From sequence record OR786310.1: DNA of 64,000 nucleotides. One strand, written 5' to 3'. Below the pieces are notes generated by a model. That model saw nothing but the letters and a program-made list of their open reading frames with translations, did not search any database and was not told where the DNA came from. Origin of the DNA: Escherichia phage ETEC-TG. Numbering within the stretch: position 1 is the first letter of the stretch; every line of letters begins with the position of its first letter. Below, piece by piece: positions 2,984 through 8,796 of the stretch. The translations under genes and the position numbers were made by a program.

Positions 2984-3192
2984 ACGTTCATCAAGTGTGG
3001 TAACAGGGTCGTTGACTTTTGTTAAGAGGGGCTTGCACTGCGGTAGTGTTAGAGACTACTTCTTCAGAGGTTAGCTACCAAAGAGGAAAAGGAATAGTCT
3101 CGGCTCAAGAACTTTTACGCTGAAAGTTGGGCTTGGTCTTAGAGAATGTAGCGGTTCTCTACAATCGTCAGCGTCTCTGTTACCACATTTAC

Positions 3193-3264
3193 GGCCCTGT
3201 AGCTCAATGGGAGAGCTGTCGGCTCATAACCGATAGGTAGCTGGATCGAAACCAGCCAGGGCCA
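3193..3264 (+). tRNA. tRNA-Met or Ile2 (anticodon CAT)
   Basis: Hand-folded cloverleaf: acceptor GGCCCTG/CAGGGCC, anticodon loop CT-CAT-AA, T-loop ATCGAAA, encoded CCA. Confidence 0.7.
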
Positions 3265-3269
3265 CCAAC

Positions 3270-3341: not shown

Positions 3342-3540
3342 CCAGAACATTTTAACATGAATTAGCTCAAGTGATTTGAACCCACTACTGATCATGGTGG
3401 CAGAGAATGAGGCAAGTATGTCAGACATTATAAACAAAGGCCACGGTTATATTAGAAGACATAAATGCTCGAAGAGCACCGTTCGTGGAGAACGGGGGTT
3501 GGTGGAGTCACCATTCATGGTAAAATGTTTTAAAAAACTA

Positions 3541-3570
3541 TTGACAACTAACATTATTTTATGTTAGATT
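3541..3570 (+). promoter_or_regulatory. sigma70-like extended -10 promoter inside the tRNA cluster
   Basis: TTGACA - 18 nt - TGtTAGATT. Confidence 0.5.
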
Positions 3571-3578
3571 ATAAGTAT

Positions 3579-3666
3579 GGAAGGGCAAATCGACGTGGCG
3601 ACGAAAACGGTCTTGAAAACCGCCGAGCTTGAAAGAGCCTTGGGAGTTCGACTCTCCCTCCTTCCG
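3579..3666 (+). tRNA. tRNA-Ser (anticodon TGA), class II
   Basis: Acceptor GGAAGGG/TCCTTCC, anticodon loop CT-TGA-AA, long variable arm, T-loop TTCGACT, CCA follows. Confidence 0.65.
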
Positions 3667-3756: not shown

Positions 3757-3900
3757 CCAAGTTCTTTTTAATATAGCTTACTTTAGCAGAGTAAATCTTC
3801 GGCAAGTGGCGGTAACCACTTTACCGATAACTCATAGTTAGTGGTGTGAACACTGGCTATTTTAAAAAGAATTTAAAAAGAATTTAAATATTAGTATTTA

Positions 3901-3985
3901 GGTGAGTTAATTCCGTAGGGGTAGCGGGGCAGACTGTAAATCTGTTATCATTGCGATTCGGGTGGTTCGACTCCATCACTCACCA
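3901..3985 (+). tRNA. tRNA-Tyr (anticodon GTA), class II
   Basis: Acceptor GGTGAGT/ACTCACC, anticodon loop CT-GTA-AA, long variable arm, T-loop TTCGACT, CCA follows. Confidence 0.65.
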
Positions 3986-4077: not shown

Positions 4078-4170
4078 CCAGAATTATGGACTTGTAGAGT
4101 TAAGGTAAACCCCCAGTCGCCAAGAGGCTTCTGGAATTGCAGGTATCGAATCCTGCCGAGTCCCAGCTTT

Positions 4171-4242
4171 GCTCCTATAGTATAATGGCTATTACAACGG
4201 TTTTGTAATCCGTGGATCTCTGTTCGATTCAGAGTGGGAGCA
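4171..4242 (+). tRNA. tRNA-Thr (anticodon TGT)
   Basis: Acceptor GCTCCTA/TGGGAGC, anticodon loop TT-TGT-AA, T-arm CTCTG-TTCGATT-CAGAG, CCA follows. Confidence 0.65.
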
Positions 4243-4522
4243 CCAACACAACATTAAGAGCACTGTGATTGATCGTCGTATCCTGTGCACAAGGTCTGTT
4301 CGAAAGACAGTGTTCTTAGTATTGTGTTGATCACACAAAAAAAGAGTTACCTGAAACTTGACCGGAGTAGGGTTGGATGGGGCAAAAGAAGAAGCGGCTC
4401 TCCCATCGACAGCAACGAAGAATAATATTTGACTTTGGTTTTGTATTATTTTAAGTTAGCTTACCGAACGTAGGGCTAGTCACCCAACGGGATACTCGTC
4501 ACTGTCCCACTCAATAAAACTA

Positions 4523-4552
4523 TTGACAACCAATAGTAAAATGTAGTATAGT
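4523..4552 (+). promoter_or_regulatory. sigma70-like promoter upstream of tRNA-Gly
   Basis: TTGACA - 18 nt - TATAGT. Confidence 0.5.
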
Positions 4553-4563
4553 AAAGATGTAGG

Positions 4564-4634: not shown

Positions 4635-4735
4635 CCAAATTATTTAATAAAGGGTTGCCAGAAAACTTTCTCTTTTACTCATGGTTTTCTCCTTCTCTCA
4701 CACCTCTTCTGGTTGCCCTTCATTAAATGATTTAT

Positions 4736-5038: not shown

Positions 5039-5119
5039 TTCGATTCTTGTCGAAACAACCAGTTTCCCGTTAGACTTACAGGATAAGAGTTCCACAATTT
5101 ATTGTGACGCTGGTTCGAA

Positions 5120-5195
5120 TCCAGCACGGGATACATAATAGCGGGATAGAGGAGTCTGGTCGTCCTCGCCAGTTTCATATGCTGGAGATCATTGG
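5120..5195 (+). tRNA. tRNA-Met or Ile2 (anticodon CAT), mismatched 1:72 pair
   Basis: Anticodon stem CCAGT/GCTGG with loop TT-CAT-AT, T-arm ATTGG-TTCAAAT-CCAAT, acceptor 3' TCCCGCC, CCA follows; position 1 (A) does not pair with 72 (C). Confidence 0.6.
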
Positions 5196-5333
5196 TTCAA
5201 ATCCAATTCCCGCCTCCAAATATCGCTTGCCAGCGGTATCTTTGAAGACCTTGCCTGGTTCCTTCTAAGATGGAGGGGTGCGACTCCTTAACGCACAATT
5301 ATAATAAAGCATTTCAAATTAACAGTATTTATT

Positions 5334-5357
5334 AGCCTCCTTATTGGAGGCTTTTTG
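5334..5357 (+). terminator. Rho-independent terminator closing the tRNA cluster
   Basis: Hairpin AGCCTCC-ttatt-GGAGGCT followed by TTTTTG. Confidence 0.6.
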
Positions 5358-5375
5358 CTATCTATTGAATAAAAC

Positions 5376-5404
5376 TTGACTTATTATTTTTTATATGTTA
5401 AGAT
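5376..5404 (+). promoter_or_regulatory. sigma70-like extended -10 promoter
   Basis: TTGACT - 17 nt - TGtTAAGAT, followed by TAGGAGGA RBS of the 5426 gene. Confidence 0.5.
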
Positions 5405-5425
5405 AAAGTTTAGGAGGATTTTATT

Positions 5426-5722
5426 ATGCCTAAACTAAAACGTGGTCGTGGAAGACCAACAGCCGAAATGCAACAGATTTACGCAATGGATGCGGCGCAA
5501 GCAAGTGTAAAAGAATTATTTGCAGAGCATTATTTAGAAGCTATGCGGTATATTGTTGAACTTGTTAATGATAAGGATGCAGCAAAACCTCTCCGCTTCC
5601 AAGCAGCTAAAGCTATTAAAGAGCAAGTAGAAGAATGGTTAGAAGAACATTATGAAGCTATGGAAGAAGAAACCCCTGCCGTGCAGAATACAGATGACGT
5701 TCCTAAAAAGATCGTAATCTAA
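5426..5722 (+). CDS. small DNA-binding protein with AT-hook-like KRGRGRP motif (possible small terminase or regulator)
   Basis: Strong RBS and promoter; N-terminal KRGRGRP; acidic helical remainder; sits upstream of the packaging genes. Confidence 0.4.
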   Translation: MPKLKRGRGRPTAEMQQIYAMDAAQASVKELFAEHYLEAMRYIVELVNDKDAAKPLRFQAAKAIKEQVEEWLEEHYEAMEEETPAVQNTDDVPKKIVI

Positions 5723-5738
5723 TCCCTCTCCTCTCTTG

Positions 5739-5805
5739 GGGCTTTGCCCCTCCTCCTTGTTATTTTTAACACCCCTCTCCGAAAGGTTAGGGGCTTTTTT
5801 ATTTT
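5739..5805 (+). terminator. tandem hairpins with T-runs (terminator region)
   Basis: GGGGCTTTGCCCC and CCCCTCTCCGAAAGGTTAGGGG followed by CTTTTTTATTTTT. Confidence 0.5.
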
Positions 5806-5811
5806 TAATGC

Positions 5812-5841
5812 TTGCAATTGTATATCATTTTATGATAAGAT
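5812..5841 (+). promoter_or_regulatory. sigma70-like extended -10 promoter
   Basis: TTGCAA - 18 nt - TGaTAAGAT, near copy of the 5376 promoter. Confidence 0.45.
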
Positions 5842-5862
5842 CAGATATGAGGAGGATAAAAT

Positions 5863-6033
5863 ATGCGCAATTTTGTAGTTAAAAATGATTTTAACCGTTC
5901 TTCTTATCATAAAGATAAAAAGAATGATTACACACGGGCTTGGAACTTGGAGGAAGAACTTTATGATGACAGAGAAGACTTGGGAAGAGATCCTAGCGAA
6001 GGCTCAACCAATGGAAGTGAAGAAGATAGTTAA
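5863..6033 (+). CDS. hypothetical acidic protein (not in ORF track; preferred over overlapping 5885-6100)
   Basis: ATG at 5863 preceded by GAGGAGGA RBS and the 5812 promoter; my translation gives 56 aa to TAA at 6031; the 5885-6100 track ORF lacks an RBS. Confidence 0.35.
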   Translation: MRNFVVKNDFNRSSYHKDKKNDYTRAWNLEEELYDDREDLGRDPSEGSTNGSEEDS

Positions 6034-6083
6034 CAACGCCCCTTCTCTTCCTAAAATAAAATTTTATGAGGAAGTAGAAGATA

Positions 6084-6476
6084 ATGAATCTAAAGACTAA
6101 AACTGTATTAAGTTTTGTTTTAATTGTTGTTCTTATTCTTGCCGGAATGTTTGCTTATAACAAGATACGTGAGTCTGGCTACAAAGATGGTGTTGCCTAT
6201 CAAACGCAAGTATATCAAGCAGCCCAAGCAAAAGCAAAACAAGATTTTGATGTTCTTCAAAAAAGAGCAGATGAAGAAAGAGCATTATTAAATACTCAAA
6301 TAAACAACTTGTCTAAAAACAATGCACAATTAAAAGCAGATTTAGAGAAGAAGAAACAAACGATCAACGAGGATACAACGAATTATGCAAAAACTAATTC
6401 TGGCAGTATGTCTTGCTTTGCCCCTAATGATGACGGGTTGTTCATCATCAACAAAAGTTTCCCCAGTTCTTATTGA
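6084..6476 (+). CDS. type II membrane coiled-coil protein (i-spanin-like)
   Basis: N-terminal TM helix VLSFVLIVVLILAGMFAY then coiled-coil; overlapped by a lipoprotein gene in another frame. Confidence 0.4.
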   Translation: MNLKTKTVLSFVLIVVLILAGMFAYNKIRESGYKDGVAYQTQVYQAAQAKAKQDFDVLQKRADEERALLNTQINNLSKNNAQLKADLEKKKQTINEDTTNYAKTNSGSMSCFAPNDDGLFIINKSFPSSY

Positions 6477-6711
6477 TGAGTGTAAGGCTGTAGCCATAGA
6501 AAAGGTTAAAGGTCCAGATTCGGACTTGATGGATAAAGTATCGACACCTGTGCCATACACTAAAAATCAAATTGCAAAAGGGGTTAGTAGATCTGAAGTT
6601 GTTAACAACCAAACTCAAAACAATGCTCTTTGGGAGCAAGATAGACGAAAGGTTCTAGGTTTACAAACATATATTAAAACACTGCAAGAAAAAGGTATTA
6701 TTGCTGAATAA
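6385..6711 (+). CDS. lipoprotein (o-spanin-like)
   Basis: Signal peptide with lipobox LMMTGC; overlaps 3' end of 6084-6476. Confidence 0.4.
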   Translation: MQKLILAVCLALPLMMTGCSSSTKVSPVLIDECKAVAIEKVKGPDSDLMDKVSTPVPYTKNQIAKGVSRSEVVNNQTQNNALWEQDRRKVLGLQTYIKTLQEKGIIAE

Positions 6712-6720
6712 GGAGGGAAT

Positions 6721-8796
6721 GTGGCAAAGAAAAAGGCAGCAGGTAGTTTAGCTGGAGTAGATATTGAAGTAAAGGCTCAACCAGGTAAACAGACTCTTGC
6801 AATGGATTTAATGCCAGAAGTTATGATTTATGGTGGTGCCGCTGGATGTGTTTCTGCTGAAACGGAATATCTTACAAAAGATGGTTGGAGGCAGATTAGT
6901 GAATATTCGGGAGAGGATATTTACCAATACAATCCTAAGAATAAGCGTTTAGAATTGGTAACACCTTATTTTGTAGAATACGATTTAAATGGAGATAACC
7001 TATACAGAATAACAAATGGTGTAGGATTATTCCAAGAACTTAGTATGGAACACCGTTTTGTATTCTATAAGAAAAAGAAATCAAAGAAACATTTCGAGAT
7101 TCTTGTAGGAGATCTTATTGCATTACAGCAAATAGGAAAACCCCTGCAAGGTTATGTAGAAAATCCATTCGGTAAACGTGTTCCTTTTAACATACCTGGT
7201 AAAAAGAGCACTTACTTAAAAATACACGAGGTTATTTCAACAGATGATAAGAAATATTGTTTTGAGACTCCAAGCAGCTATATTGTCTTTAGACGTGGCG
7301 ATCACTGCTTCGTTACTGGGAATAGCGGCAAGTCTCGTCTGCTATTGCTGAAAGCTTTAAAATACGCCTACAAAGACCCTTTGTTTGGTGGAATACTTTT
7401 CCGTAAGAACACCACTGCTCACCGTAAACCAGGTGGTCTGTTTACAGAAGCAAAACGTTTGTATCTTCCTTTACAACCACATGTAAAAGAAAGTACAATG
7501 GATATCATTTTTGAAGCCACTGGTGGTGGAACCCTCAAATTTGACCATTTGGAAAATGATAACGTAACAGCAGAAACAAACCATCAGGGTACACAGTATT
7601 CAATGGTAGGTTTTGACGAGTTAACCCACTTCACACAATATGAAATGCTCTATCTTCTGGGACGTATGCGTTCAGAGTCAGAAACAAGTTTCATGTTGTG
7701 CACATGTAACCCTGACGCAGATAGTTGGGTTTTGAATTGGGTGTTACCTTATCTTGATGAGGGTGGTTATCCTAGAGAAGATATGTGTGGTAAACAAAAA
7801 TATTTCATCATTGTTAACGATGAACCTGTTTTTGCTGACACACCTGAAGAACTGAAAGAAAAATATCCAGAAAACTGTTTCATGGAAAACCCTAATACAG
7901 GGGAGACAGTTGTTATTGAACCACAAACTTTCGTATTTATTGGTGGGACAATATTTGATAACCCAGAACTCATTAGGCTTAACCCTAATTACTTAGCACA
8001 GCTTAAATCACAAACAGCTATCAAAAGAGCACAGCTTCTGGACGGTTGTTGGTTTGCACGTATCCAGAAAGAATCTTTCTTTCAACGTGAATGGTTACAT
8101 AAAATATCTTATAAAGATGTTCCTAACAATCTTAAACTAATGCGAGCATGGGATAAAGCTGTTTCAGTTCCTACAGAAACTTACCGTTATCCAGACTATA
8201 CAACATCTGTCAAAATGGGTAAAGACCAAGATGGTAATATCTACATCTTTGGCGACTATGATTATGATGCTGTGGATGAGAAAAGTAAAATTTTCGGAAG
8301 GTTTCGAAGACTACCTGGGGAAAGGGATAACCTGATTCTAAATCAATGTAAGATTGATGGACCAGAAGTTACAGTAGTGCTTCCTAAAGACCCATCTGGT
8401 GCTGGGACAATAGAATACACAGAGTCTGCAAAGAAACTTATTCTAGAGGGTTTTGTTGTTAAACCAGATGCTATGCCAGGCAACAAGAAAAAACTTCAGC
8501 GTTTTATGCCTTTTAGTAGTGCGTGTCAAAACGGCTTTGTTTATATTGTTGAAGATTCTTTCCCTAATGTGGAAACTTTAACCCACTTTTATAAAGAATT
8601 GGAATCTTTCAATGGTGAAAGATCTACAGCCACTATTAAAGATGACATTCCCGATGCTGCTGCCTCTTGTTTTAATACTCTGTCAAAAGAGAATACTTTC
8701 AAAGCAGTAGCAATCCCTACAACAACAAATGCTCCTACAGGATACAGTAGAATGAACAGCGGATTTCACCAACCGTATAGTGTCCGTAAAAGATAA
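6721..8796 (+). CDS. terminase large subunit, interrupted by a putative mini-intein
   Basis: GTG start after AGGAGGG RBS; removing the insert reconstitutes Walker A YGGAAG|SGKS; Walker B-like MVGFDE; directly upstream of portal. Confidence 0.65.
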   Translation: MAKKKAAGSLAGVDIEVKAQPGKQTLAMDLMPEVMIYGGAAGCVSAETEYLTKDGWRQISEYSGEDIYQYNPKNKRLELVTPYFVEYDLNGDNLYRITNGVGLFQELSMEHRFVFYKKKKSKKHFEILVGDLIALQQIGKPLQGYVENPFGKRVPFNIPGKKSTYLKIHEVISTDDKKYCFETPSSYIVFRRGDHCFVTGNSGKSRLLLLKALKYAYKDPLFGGILFRKNTTAHRKPGGLFTEAKRLYLPLQPHVKESTMDIIFEATGGGTLKFDHLENDNVTAETNHQGTQYSMVGFDELTHFTQYEMLYLLGRMRSESETSFMLCTCNPDADSWVLNWVLPYLDEGGYPREDMCGKQKYFIIVNDEPVFADTPEELKEKYPENCFMENPNTGETVVIEPQTFVFIGGTIFDNPELIRLNPNYLAQLKSQTAIKRAQLLDGCWFARIQKESFFQREWLHKISYKDVPNNLKLMRAWDKAVSVPTETYRYPDYTTSVKMGKDQDGNIYIFGDYDYDAVDEKSKIFGRFRRLPGERDNLILNQCKIDGPEVTVVLPKDPSGAGTIEYTESAKKLILEGFVVKPDAMPGNKKKLQRFMPFSSACQNGFVYIVEDSFPNVETLTHFYKELESFNGERSTATIKDDIPDAAASCFNTLSKENTFKAVAIPTTTNAPTGYSRMNSGFHQPYSVRKR
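6847..7323 (+). other. putative mini-intein (159 aa, Cys43 to Asn201) in the terminase P-loop
   Basis: Begins CVSAETEYLTKDGW, internal S-x-x-H block (LSMEHRF), ends ...FVTGN with +1 Ser; no endonuclease domain. Confidence 0.55.

Follow-up and report, generated by a model that had tools for sequence, protein, structure and literature searches.

Results

Genomic context of the element

The window analysed in this work is the whole stretch of 64,000 nucleotides from Escherichia phage ETEC-TG (OR786310.1), and the element described here occupies positions 2990–3192 of its plus strand. It is preceded on the same strand by a sigma-70-type promoter (2954–2983), which comprises TTGACA at 2954–2959, an 18-nt spacer and TG-n-TAGGAT ending at 2983. 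This promoter-like site shows 10/12 matches and an extended -10 (TG present), it is also kept in the phages phiWec179 and PsgM04F, and its spacing predicts a transcription start near A2990. The gene for tRNA-Met(CAU) (3193–3267, +) follows directly after the element. Both flanking features are where the original prediction had placed them when it described a structured segment of approximately 190 nt lying between a promoter and the first tRNA. Its claim that this segment has no ORF was also borne out, as no ATG-start ORF lies inside the element and no reading frame is conserved among the homologues. In the tRNA region of the window there are three near-identical promoters (2954, 3541 and 4523), and the sole terminator-like site on the tRNA strand with a real U-run is located at 5334–5352.

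Terminal inverted repeat and folding energy

The segment had been delimited by two 10-mers, GTGGTAACAG at 2997–3006 and CTGTTACCAC at 3177–3186, said to close it in a perfect helix. The two are exact reverse complements at those positions, so that the 10 bp stand, but the helix was understated, since they form only the core of a 16+7-bp helix. Helix P1, whose 5' strand (2993–3008, +) holds GTGGTAACAG and whose 3' strand (3175–3190, +) holds CTGTTACCAC, has 16 bp including G·U. Beyond a 1×1 mismatch it continues into P2, with 7 bp between CGUUGAC at 3010–3016 (+) and the strand at 3167–3173 (+), and then into 2–3 further pairs. When the whole 64 kb were scanned for inverted repeats whose arms lie no more than 300 nt apart, the top-ranked repeat of the window was this one (arms 2993–3027 and 3156–3190, 35 nt, 77% complementary). 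The MFE of 2997–3186 was -71.5 kcal/mol, against -51.4 ± 4.5 kcal/mol for 200 dinucleotide shuffles, of which none (0/200) was as good (z -4.48). For 2990–3192, which begins at the predicted transcript start, stops just short of tRNA-Met and is also the exact extent of the matches of three covariance models (R1, R2 and R3), the z-score was -5.6. In both intervals, folding therefore agrees with the structured segment that had been predicted.

Architecture of the element

The overall fold consists of the long terminal helix, a three-way junction and a four-way junction. The outer three-way junction is formed by the terminal helix, Pa and H4, and the inner four-way junction by Pa, H1, H2 and H3. 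The parts, all on the plus strand, were compared among relatives in a model-guided alignment of 18 sequences (A7). The sequence of P1 is unrelated between clades and its pairing is kept; in the terminal-helix group (P1+P2+P3), compensatory change was observed in 15 of 26 pairs. P3 joins G3021 and U3022 with A3161 and C3162, and the corresponding pairs of A7 (33:196 and 34:195) are invariant. The conserved junction GUUAAGA (3021–3027) reads GUUAARA in 18/18 sequences. Pa, which closes the inner junction by pairing 3028–3032 with 3136–3140 in the covariation alignment, is paired in 97.8% of cases and shows compensatory change in 4/5 pairs (helix 2). The hairpin H1 (GCACU-GCGGU-AGUGU, 3035–3049; helix 3) is 100% paired, with three invariant pairs and covariation in two apical pairs. 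It is followed by H2 (3052–3101; helix 4), a long hairpin of variable length with the self-complementary apical loop UAGCUA at 3072–3077, in which 5/6 basal pairs covary. H3 (3102–3133; helices 5 and 6) has the form GGCUCA-AGA-hairpin-UGGGCU, which is given by the pattern GGCUNAAGA-hairpin-NAGCU in the anatomy of the family, and carries the 7-nt loop UACGCUG at 3116–3122. Finally, H4 (3141–3160; helix 7), with the loop GUAGCG at 3148–3153, closes the outer junction, and all of its pairs (7/7) covary.

Across clades, the invariant or nearly invariant positions are GUUAARA, UGCA...UGU of H1, GG...CU at the base of H3 and the central GC in the loops of H3 and H4. In the structural model, the conserved single-stranded GUUAARA, AG, AAGA and GC-centred loops, together with the complementarity between the H3 and H4 loops, suggest that the RNA adopts a defined tertiary fold.

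Covariation and the selected strand

Nine aligned Phapecoctavirus sequences analysed by RNAalifold yielded a consensus of 74 pairs identical in fold to the single-sequence MFE structure. Within this genus (80% identity), eight pairs were changed on both sides between two sub-clades, as exemplified by the swaps of C-G and U-A in H1, A-U to G-C in H2 and U-A to A-U in H3. At the level of A7, 95.2% of the pair cells were standard pairs, compared to 72.8% in shuffled alignments (0/500 as high) and to about 40–43% of cells paired when the 3' partners were slid by 1–3 columns. The covariation score was 0.631, against 0.220 for shuffled and 0.09–0.13 for slid alignments. All seven helices were supported, with compensatory change in 41/62 pairs, counts that rest on the model-guided A7 because sequence-only alignment largely fails at 43% identity: a MAFFT alignment based on sequence only (~43% identity), analysed by RNAalifold, recovers the H2-base and H3-base helices and no others. 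Single-sequence MFE folding, which uses no alignment, gave the same architecture for the window, a Klebsiella phage and the uncultured contig L086, and most of it for the phages FKP3, Tr1 and SP-058.

The terminal helix is of wholly different sequence in each clade and still paired. Its 5' and 3' strands are AAGUGUGGUAACAGGG and CUCUGUUACCACAUUU in the window, AAAACAUAUAAAG... and CUUUAUGUGUUUU in Klebsiella phages, CCAACUUAUAAUG... and CCUUAUAACUUGG in Citrobacter phage Tr1, and UUGAACAAUAUGA and UCAUAUUGUUCA in Salmonella phages. A lack of conserved pairing in relatives had been named as what would speak against the original prediction; the opposite was found, namely compensatory change across four clades. 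Moreover, G·U cells exceed A·C cells by 148:16 in the alignment, and the reverse strand scored 34 bits with R1, against 240 for the plus strand. This excess and the weak reverse-strand score indicate that the selected molecule is RNA of the plus strand, which is the strand of the tRNAs.

Complementary and palindromic loops

The apical loop of H2 cannot be aligned between clades, yet in each of them it contains a perfect palindrome of 6–8 nt: UAGCUA in the window, UGAUCA in Klebsiella and Citrobacter phages, and CGUUAACG in Salmonella phages. In some lineages there is a second palindromic loop, either in H3 (UUGCAA or CUUGCAAG) or in H4 (GUAGCUAC in phiWec179). By a rough estimate, a 6-nt palindrome is expected by chance in a 9-nt loop region in ~6% of cases; because of this rate, three independent palindromes at the H2 apex are unlikely to be accidental (~1e-3 allowing for four loops). 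The palindromic apex, through these few independent events, suggests a signature of self-association by kissing loops.

The loops of H3 and H4 are complementary to each other over 4–7 bp in every member of the family. The facing sequences are CGCUG and UAGCG in the window (5 bp), UUGC and GCAA or GCAG in Klebsiella phages, Tr1 and SP-058 (4 bp), UUGCCA and UGGCAA in TR2 (6 bp), and UACGCUG and UAGCGUA in contig L132 (7 bp). Counting Watson-Crick pairs only, own-group combinations give 3–6 bp and cross-group combinations 2–3 bp. Per-sequence shuffle P values were mostly 0.1–0.5, with the exceptions of TR2 (0.005) and L132 (0.015). A contact between the two loops is likely but unproven, with few independent events behind it.

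Distribution of the family

The region is 99.9% identical to that of Escherichia phage phAPEC8 (Phapecoctavirus, Stephanstirmvirinae), in which the stretch from gene 142 to tRNA-Met carries no annotation. The element is present in 70 phage records, most of them at least 98.6% identical, and a second sub-clade of ~80% identity comprises six records among the matches listed, including phiWec179, 181, 188, 190 and PsgM04F.

Distant homologues, of 160–205 nt and 42–46% identical to the copy in the window, were obtained with covariance models. Model R1 was built from the nine-sequence Phapecoctavirus alignment and run with filters off on the tRNA regions of relatives, which had been reached through the upstream gene and by blastn. 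It detected members in Citrobacter phage Tr1 (L058:4566–4764, 39 bits), in the Klebsiella phages phi1_175008 (L065:4090–4286, 50 bits), FKP3 (L066:4221–4414, 32 bits) and KP2025 (L067:4137–4330, 26 bits), in the IMG/VR contig L086 (57 bits) and in the N4-like Salmonella phage FSL SP-058 of the Schitoviridae (L069:1485–1645, 36 bits). Two further Salmonella Schitoviridae, UTK0002 (L137:1501–1661) and TR2 (L138:1501–1660), and the uncultured contigs L132, L185 and L182 were added later. The homologues thus fall into Klebsiella/Citrobacter Stephanstirmvirinae, Salmonella N4-like Schitoviridae and 3–4 uncultured contigs. In a reciprocal search with model R2, built from six non-Phapecoctavirus sequences only, the best match of the 64-kb window was exactly 2990–3192 (80.1 bits, E 1.8e-21), a test that is independent in sequence and not in structure, because the input alignment and structure of R2 derived from R1. 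Both models found one full copy per genome or locus. A full-length match of 15.9 bits (L205:3804–3998) was discarded, as it contains a Shine-Dalgarno sequence and ATG and folds weakly (z -2.2).

All copies are located within tRNA clusters, in the orientation of the tRNAs and directly next to one of them, in an arrangement that differs among clades. In the window, P1 begins 3 nt after the predicted transcript start and ends 2 nt before tRNA-Met. In the Klebsiella phages, P1 follows the encoded CCA of tRNA-Cys without a gap, and in the Salmonella phages it begins 1–2 nt after tRNA-Asn. What follows the element in the Klebsiella and Citrobacter phages is not a tRNA but a Shine-Dalgarno sequence with an ORF, and RNase P therefore does not define the element's 3' end in these phages. 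No conserved protein partner next to the element is common to the three contexts.

Full-length members were absent from the sampled regions of phi92, FBKp34, the Ackermannviridae selz and CBA120, Seunavirus EspYZU15, Proteus phage P59 and T4, and the sampled tRNA-rich enterobacterial phages without a member gave only stem-only hairpin matches. As to a host origin, blastn found no match to the element in 5,426 complete E. coli genomes. A conserved-core pattern run on 185k bacterial and archaeal genomes returned 14 matches, all rejected by R2, and a first pattern scan of IMG/VR (GGTTAGCTACCAAAG) returned 53 chance matches and zero homologues. The redesigned patterns found only L086, L093, L094 and L132 in IMG/VR, and L182 and L185 in metagenomes. 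Altogether, the pattern scans of IMG/VR, metagenomes and the 185k genomes added only six contigs, four of which contributed new sequences; as the patterns demand an exact match to the conserved core, diverged members would escape them. The breadth of the family is therefore narrow, with ~8 effectively independent sequences from four clades, all of them from phages of Enterobacteriaceae. Literature searches on the element or on Phapecoctavirus transcriptomes yielded nothing relevant, neither expression nor end-mapping data for any member, and the 2023 catalogue of ~10,000 candidate viral structured RNAs (PMC10690425) lies outside this comparison.

Comparison with known RNA families

The Rfam search that had been proposed as a check was run, and no family accounts for the element: none of the 4227 models of Rfam 15 (including 6S, YrlA, GOLLD, ROOL, manA, Drum, T-box, riboswitches and ribozymes) overlapped 2990–3192 at E<=10, and the homologous elements in L065, L058 and L069 gave no match at E<=1. 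The inner four-way junction has the topology of a cloverleaf, without a T-loop sequence. Regarding a tRNA or a tRNA-like pseudogene, ARAGORN and RF00005 detect the flanking tRNAs and nothing in 2990–3192.

The original prediction had also likened the segment to the stable non-tRNA species of the T4 tRNA region. This parallel holds for the tRNA-cluster position and the strand, but not for homology to rnaC or rnaD, which was rejected, as R2 and R3 run with filters off on T4 69000–74000 gave no match on either gene. Like the element, T4 species 1 and 2 (rnaC and rnaD) are non-tRNA RNAs encoded on the tRNA strand and adjoining tRNA genes in a virulent coliphage. They are annotated as small stable RNAs of ~120–140 nt, and rnaC is strongly structured (z -4.6). 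However, rnaC has a tRNA-like T arm (CCGGGUUCGAAUCCCGG), whereas the window element has neither a T-arm motif nor a tRNA-model score, is larger than rnaC and rnaD, contains three-way and four-way junctions and possesses a far longer terminal helix. The comparison with these T4 RNAs is thus an analogy of context only. We know of no role established for the non-tRNA RNAs of phage tRNA clusters, sixty years after T4 species 1 and 2.

YrlA (RF02553), with its protein Ro60/Rsr, resembles the element in general layout, with a multi-branched module borne on a long stem made of the paired 5' and 3' ends, but the element has no T-loop and RF02553 does not match it. Identity with a Y RNA was considered on account of the genes for DUF2828, which we take to be a relative of TROVE/Ro60, in Klebsiella phages. 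The tRNA region of one Klebsiella phage (L065) has a DUF2828 gene together with sub-threshold YrlA-like matches at 7426–7678, elsewhere than the element at 4090–4286. Since a tblastn search of the 64-kb window with the DUF2828 protein of the Klebsiella phage, made for a DUF2828/Ro60 gene, found nothing, and the YrlA-like matches of L065 are at another site than the element, this identity was rejected.

Discussion

The element described here, whose structure, evolutionary conservation, strand, tRNA-cluster context and absence of coding potential were established above, represents a compact and previously uncatalogued family of structured non-coding RNAs of 160–205 nt, found in the tRNA clusters of some phages of Enterobacteriaceae. 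The element is, in all likelihood, a functional non-coding RNA, and Rfam has no entry for its family. What is new is the family, as the kind of element is already known. Phage tRNA clusters are usually taken as tRNA genes plus spacers, and the window contains at least one spacer that is a conserved and elaborately folded RNA; probably, several tRNA-cluster spacers are conserved folded RNAs. The occurrence of the element in the distantly related Stephanstirmvirinae (myoviruses) and Schitoviridae (N4-like podoviruses) indicates that it has been exchanged and kept as a functional module. A family of 200 nt in easily handled phages of E. coli, Klebsiella and Salmonella, several of which are candidate therapeutic phages, constitutes a tractable system, and the covariation-supported model corrects the 'hypothetical protein' annotations that lie over the element in GenBank records.

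We favour, with a little more than even confidence, the view that the element is a stable RNA that is co-transcribed with the phage tRNAs, released by tRNA processing and acting in trans. From the promoter at 2954–2983, it would be transcribed as the 5' part of a tRNA-Met/tRNA-Arg precursor. In bacterial tRNA maturation, RNase P cuts at the 5' end of the tRNA, and the 3' end is trimmed by endo- and exonucleases. As this pathway is well established, a release of the element as a discrete RNA can be expected: RNase P cleavage between 3192 and 3193, where tRNA-Met begins, would set the 3' end of the element and free it. Both ends of the released RNA would be sealed in a terminal helix of at least 23 bp, with overhangs of just 2–3 nt, a geometry which is that of exonuclease-resistant stable RNAs and from which we infer stability. 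Acting in trans, such an RNA could bind a host or phage factor, as a partner or as a decoy, or it could self-assemble.

The main rival to this reading, which we regard as unlikely though deserving attention, is that the element acts in cis, its helix and core organising the maturation of the polycistronic tRNA precursor and the excised RNA having no further role. In such a role, the helix could serve as an entry site for RNase III or RNase E, or the fold could insulate the neighbouring tRNAs from misfolding. The constant proximity to a tRNA is consistent with such a role, as is the near-continuous duplex of ~23 bp formed by P1+P2 in Stephanstirmvirinae. A duplex of ~23 bp is long enough for RNase III, and one of 13 bp is short for it. 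Terminal helices likewise close most of the other inter-tRNA spacers in the window, and the P1/P2 portion of the models is matched by stem-only hairpins from tRNA clusters (e.g., window 4241–4331, 28.8 bits). The RNase III stalks of rRNA operons and of phage early transcripts also share with the element a long duplex flanking a structured RNA in a polycistronic stable-RNA precursor. In contrast to these stalks, the length of the duplex is not conserved in the element, and the conserved part is the enclosed core: the Salmonella Schitoviridae keep the whole core with a P1 of just 13 bp and a P2 that is gapped in A7, and it is the junctions and loops of the core, rather than the helix, that are most strongly conserved in sequence. 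Furthermore, four internal hairpins are kept by covariation, beyond the needs of a cleavage site or a spacer, and phi92 and FBKp34, related phages that lack the element, process comparable tRNA clusters. An RNase III stalk may be plausible for the members with a long helix, but it leaves the conserved core and the 13-bp P1 of the Schitoviridae unexplained.

Very improbable, in our judgement, is that the element is a mobile or selfish MITE-like DNA unit, or the remnant of one, residing in tRNA clusters, with the helix as its terminal inverted repeat. Such a unit would explain a length of ~200 bp with inverted-repeat ends, the differing tRNA-cluster positions in unrelated phage families and the patchy distribution among close relatives (the element follows tRNA-Cys in phi1_175008 and is absent in FBKp34), and homing endonuclease genes do occur in neighbouring tRNA regions. 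However, sequence conservation is lowest in the terminal repeats, which show compensatory change, the reverse of what is seen in repeats bound by a transposase. The internal hairpins covary too, the G·U:A·C ratio reflects selection on one RNA strand, a single full copy is present per genome, and no target-site duplication was seen at three insertion contexts when the sequences were read by eye.

Equally hard to sustain, and given slight credence here, is a riboswitch or attenuator leader in which a ligand or a tRNA controls the transcription of the downstream tRNAs. In the window, the element does sit between a promoter and the first gene, and its fold has several junctions with conserved nucleotides in them. 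Nevertheless, the element is a leader in Phapecoctavirus alone and comes after a tRNA in the other clades; neither a terminator nor an alternative pairing was found downstream, a P1 of 13–23 bp is too stable for switching, and no riboswitch or T-box model matched. That the element is merely a chance inverted repeat, or the gene for the 34-codon 'hypothetical protein' annotated over it in two GenBank records (WPEC1 and PsgM04F), is scarcely credible, since covariation and shuffle statistics exclude the former and the latter would have a TTG start in the window and a frame that is not conserved across clades.

Among the forms that a trans-acting stable RNA might take, we raise, as a speculative and rather doubtful possibility, a compact self-associating phage RNA that would be a 200-nt counterpart of the ROOL and GOLLD nanocage RNAs. 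Both of these have recently been shown to self-assemble into cages. The element is like ROOL and GOLLD (RF03087 and RF01998) in its tRNA-island context, in having no partner gene and in its candidate kissing or self-complementary loops; it differs from them in size, as they are ~600–800 nt long, 3–4 times larger, and in sequence, as RF03087 and RF01998 do not match it. Previous work describes ROOL and GOLLD in phages and prophages, often near tRNA islands, with no function or protein partner known, and with folds stabilised by kissing loops, some of them intermolecular (PMC12286853). If the element behaves likewise, the two palindromic loops of several lineages would provide two valencies for dimers, rings or larger assemblies, and these assemblies could sequester tRNAs or a tRNA-directed host factor, for instance an anticodon nuclease, during infection.

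A CUGAUCA loop is also present in a second, unrelated conserved spacer RNA of the same tRNA cluster (3345–3538), and the recurrence of this loop sequence hints at an interaction code that may be shared among tRNA-cluster RNAs.

Further structured RNAs in the tRNA cluster

The spacers of the tRNA cluster in the window resemble a collection of conserved RNA modules. One of them, besides the main element (the structured RNA that precedes tRNA-Met), is a second structured RNA of about 190 nt at 3345-3538, located between tRNA-Arg and the next promoter and closed by its own terminal helix. This spacer has a folding z of -3.8 and a clear homologue in the tRNA cluster of the Cronobacter Seunavirus EspYZU15 (L205:7825-8009; nhmmer E 1.8e-19), and an alignment of three sequences contains nine compensatory pairs. 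Its CUGAUCA hairpin loop is the same as that found at the apex of H2, the long variable hairpin of the main element, in Klebsiella-type members of the main family. Terminal helices also close the inter-tRNA spacers at 3759-3874, 4246-4563, 4638-4735 and 5219-5420, several of which have nhmmer homologues in the tRNA clusters of the phages phi92, Tr1 or FKP3 or of the IMG/VR contig L086.

At 4241-4331, immediately 3' of tRNA-Thr, there is a stem-only hairpin (about 20 bp), which is matched by the covariance models built from nine Phapecoctavirus copies of the main element (R1, 18.8 bits) and from six copies outside that genus (R2, 28.8 bits). The sequence of its stem is similar to the Klebsiella-type P1+P2 of the main element, and the hairpin could be a remnant of that element or its minimal form. 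Comparable stem-only matches were obtained in the tRNA clusters of Tr1, FKP3, phi92, selz and CBA120.

tRNA-like genes and promoter repeats

Two tRNA-like genes of the window, at 3579-3665 and 3901-3985, were both undetected by ARAGORN. With the tRNA-Sec model the first reaches 37 bits, a sub-threshold value, and its counterpart in the Phapecoctavirus PsgM04F is annotated as tRNA-Ser. The second reaches 39 bits with the tRNA model and appears to be the same gene as the tRNA-Tyr that the phAPEC8 annotation places just upstream of tRNA-Asn. In addition, the spacers 4081-4170 and 5062-5139, within which the T-arm-like hairpins GGUAUCGAAUCC and GGUUCGAAUCC occur, may be degenerate tRNAs. A weak match to the RyhB model at 5305-5359, with 29 bits where the threshold is 55, covers the terminator hairpin 5334-5352 and most probably arises by chance on account of that terminator.

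Promoters 1 and 2 of the tRNA region each carry an inverted repeat between -35 and -10, AACGTATCCT / AGGATACGTT in promoter 1 (2954-2994), where it overlaps the -10 hexamer, and CTAACAT / ATGTTAG in promoter 2 (3541-3570). The promoter 1 repeat is conserved, with compensating changes, in the Phapecoctavirus phiWec179. It could act as an operator, or could form an RNA hairpin in a read-through transcript of the upstream gene.

Observations in related phages

In Klebsiella phage phi1_175008 (L065), a gene annotated as hypothetical protein (5712-7142) corresponds in position to the annotated DUF2828 gene of Klebsiella phage KP2025 (L067), and is followed on its 3' side by two sub-threshold matches to the Y-RNA-like YrlA, at 7426-7541 (36 bits) and 7576-7678 (34 bits). 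The stretch 5712-7678 may represent a phage module of a Ro60-like protein and Y-RNA within the tRNA cluster; KP2025 and FBKp34 also have DUF2828 genes bordering their tRNA clusters.

The GenBank tRNA features of Salmonella phage FSL SP-058 (L069, KC139517.1) are displaced by about 1.1 kb from the ARAGORN and Rfam positions, so that the structured element is labelled tRNA-Lys/Pro/Tyr in that record. In KP2025, the feature annotated as 'tRNA-Arg-TCT' (5057-5488) measures 432 nt and extends over the beginning of the DUF2828 CDS; either the annotation is an artefact or the tRNA gene is interrupted.
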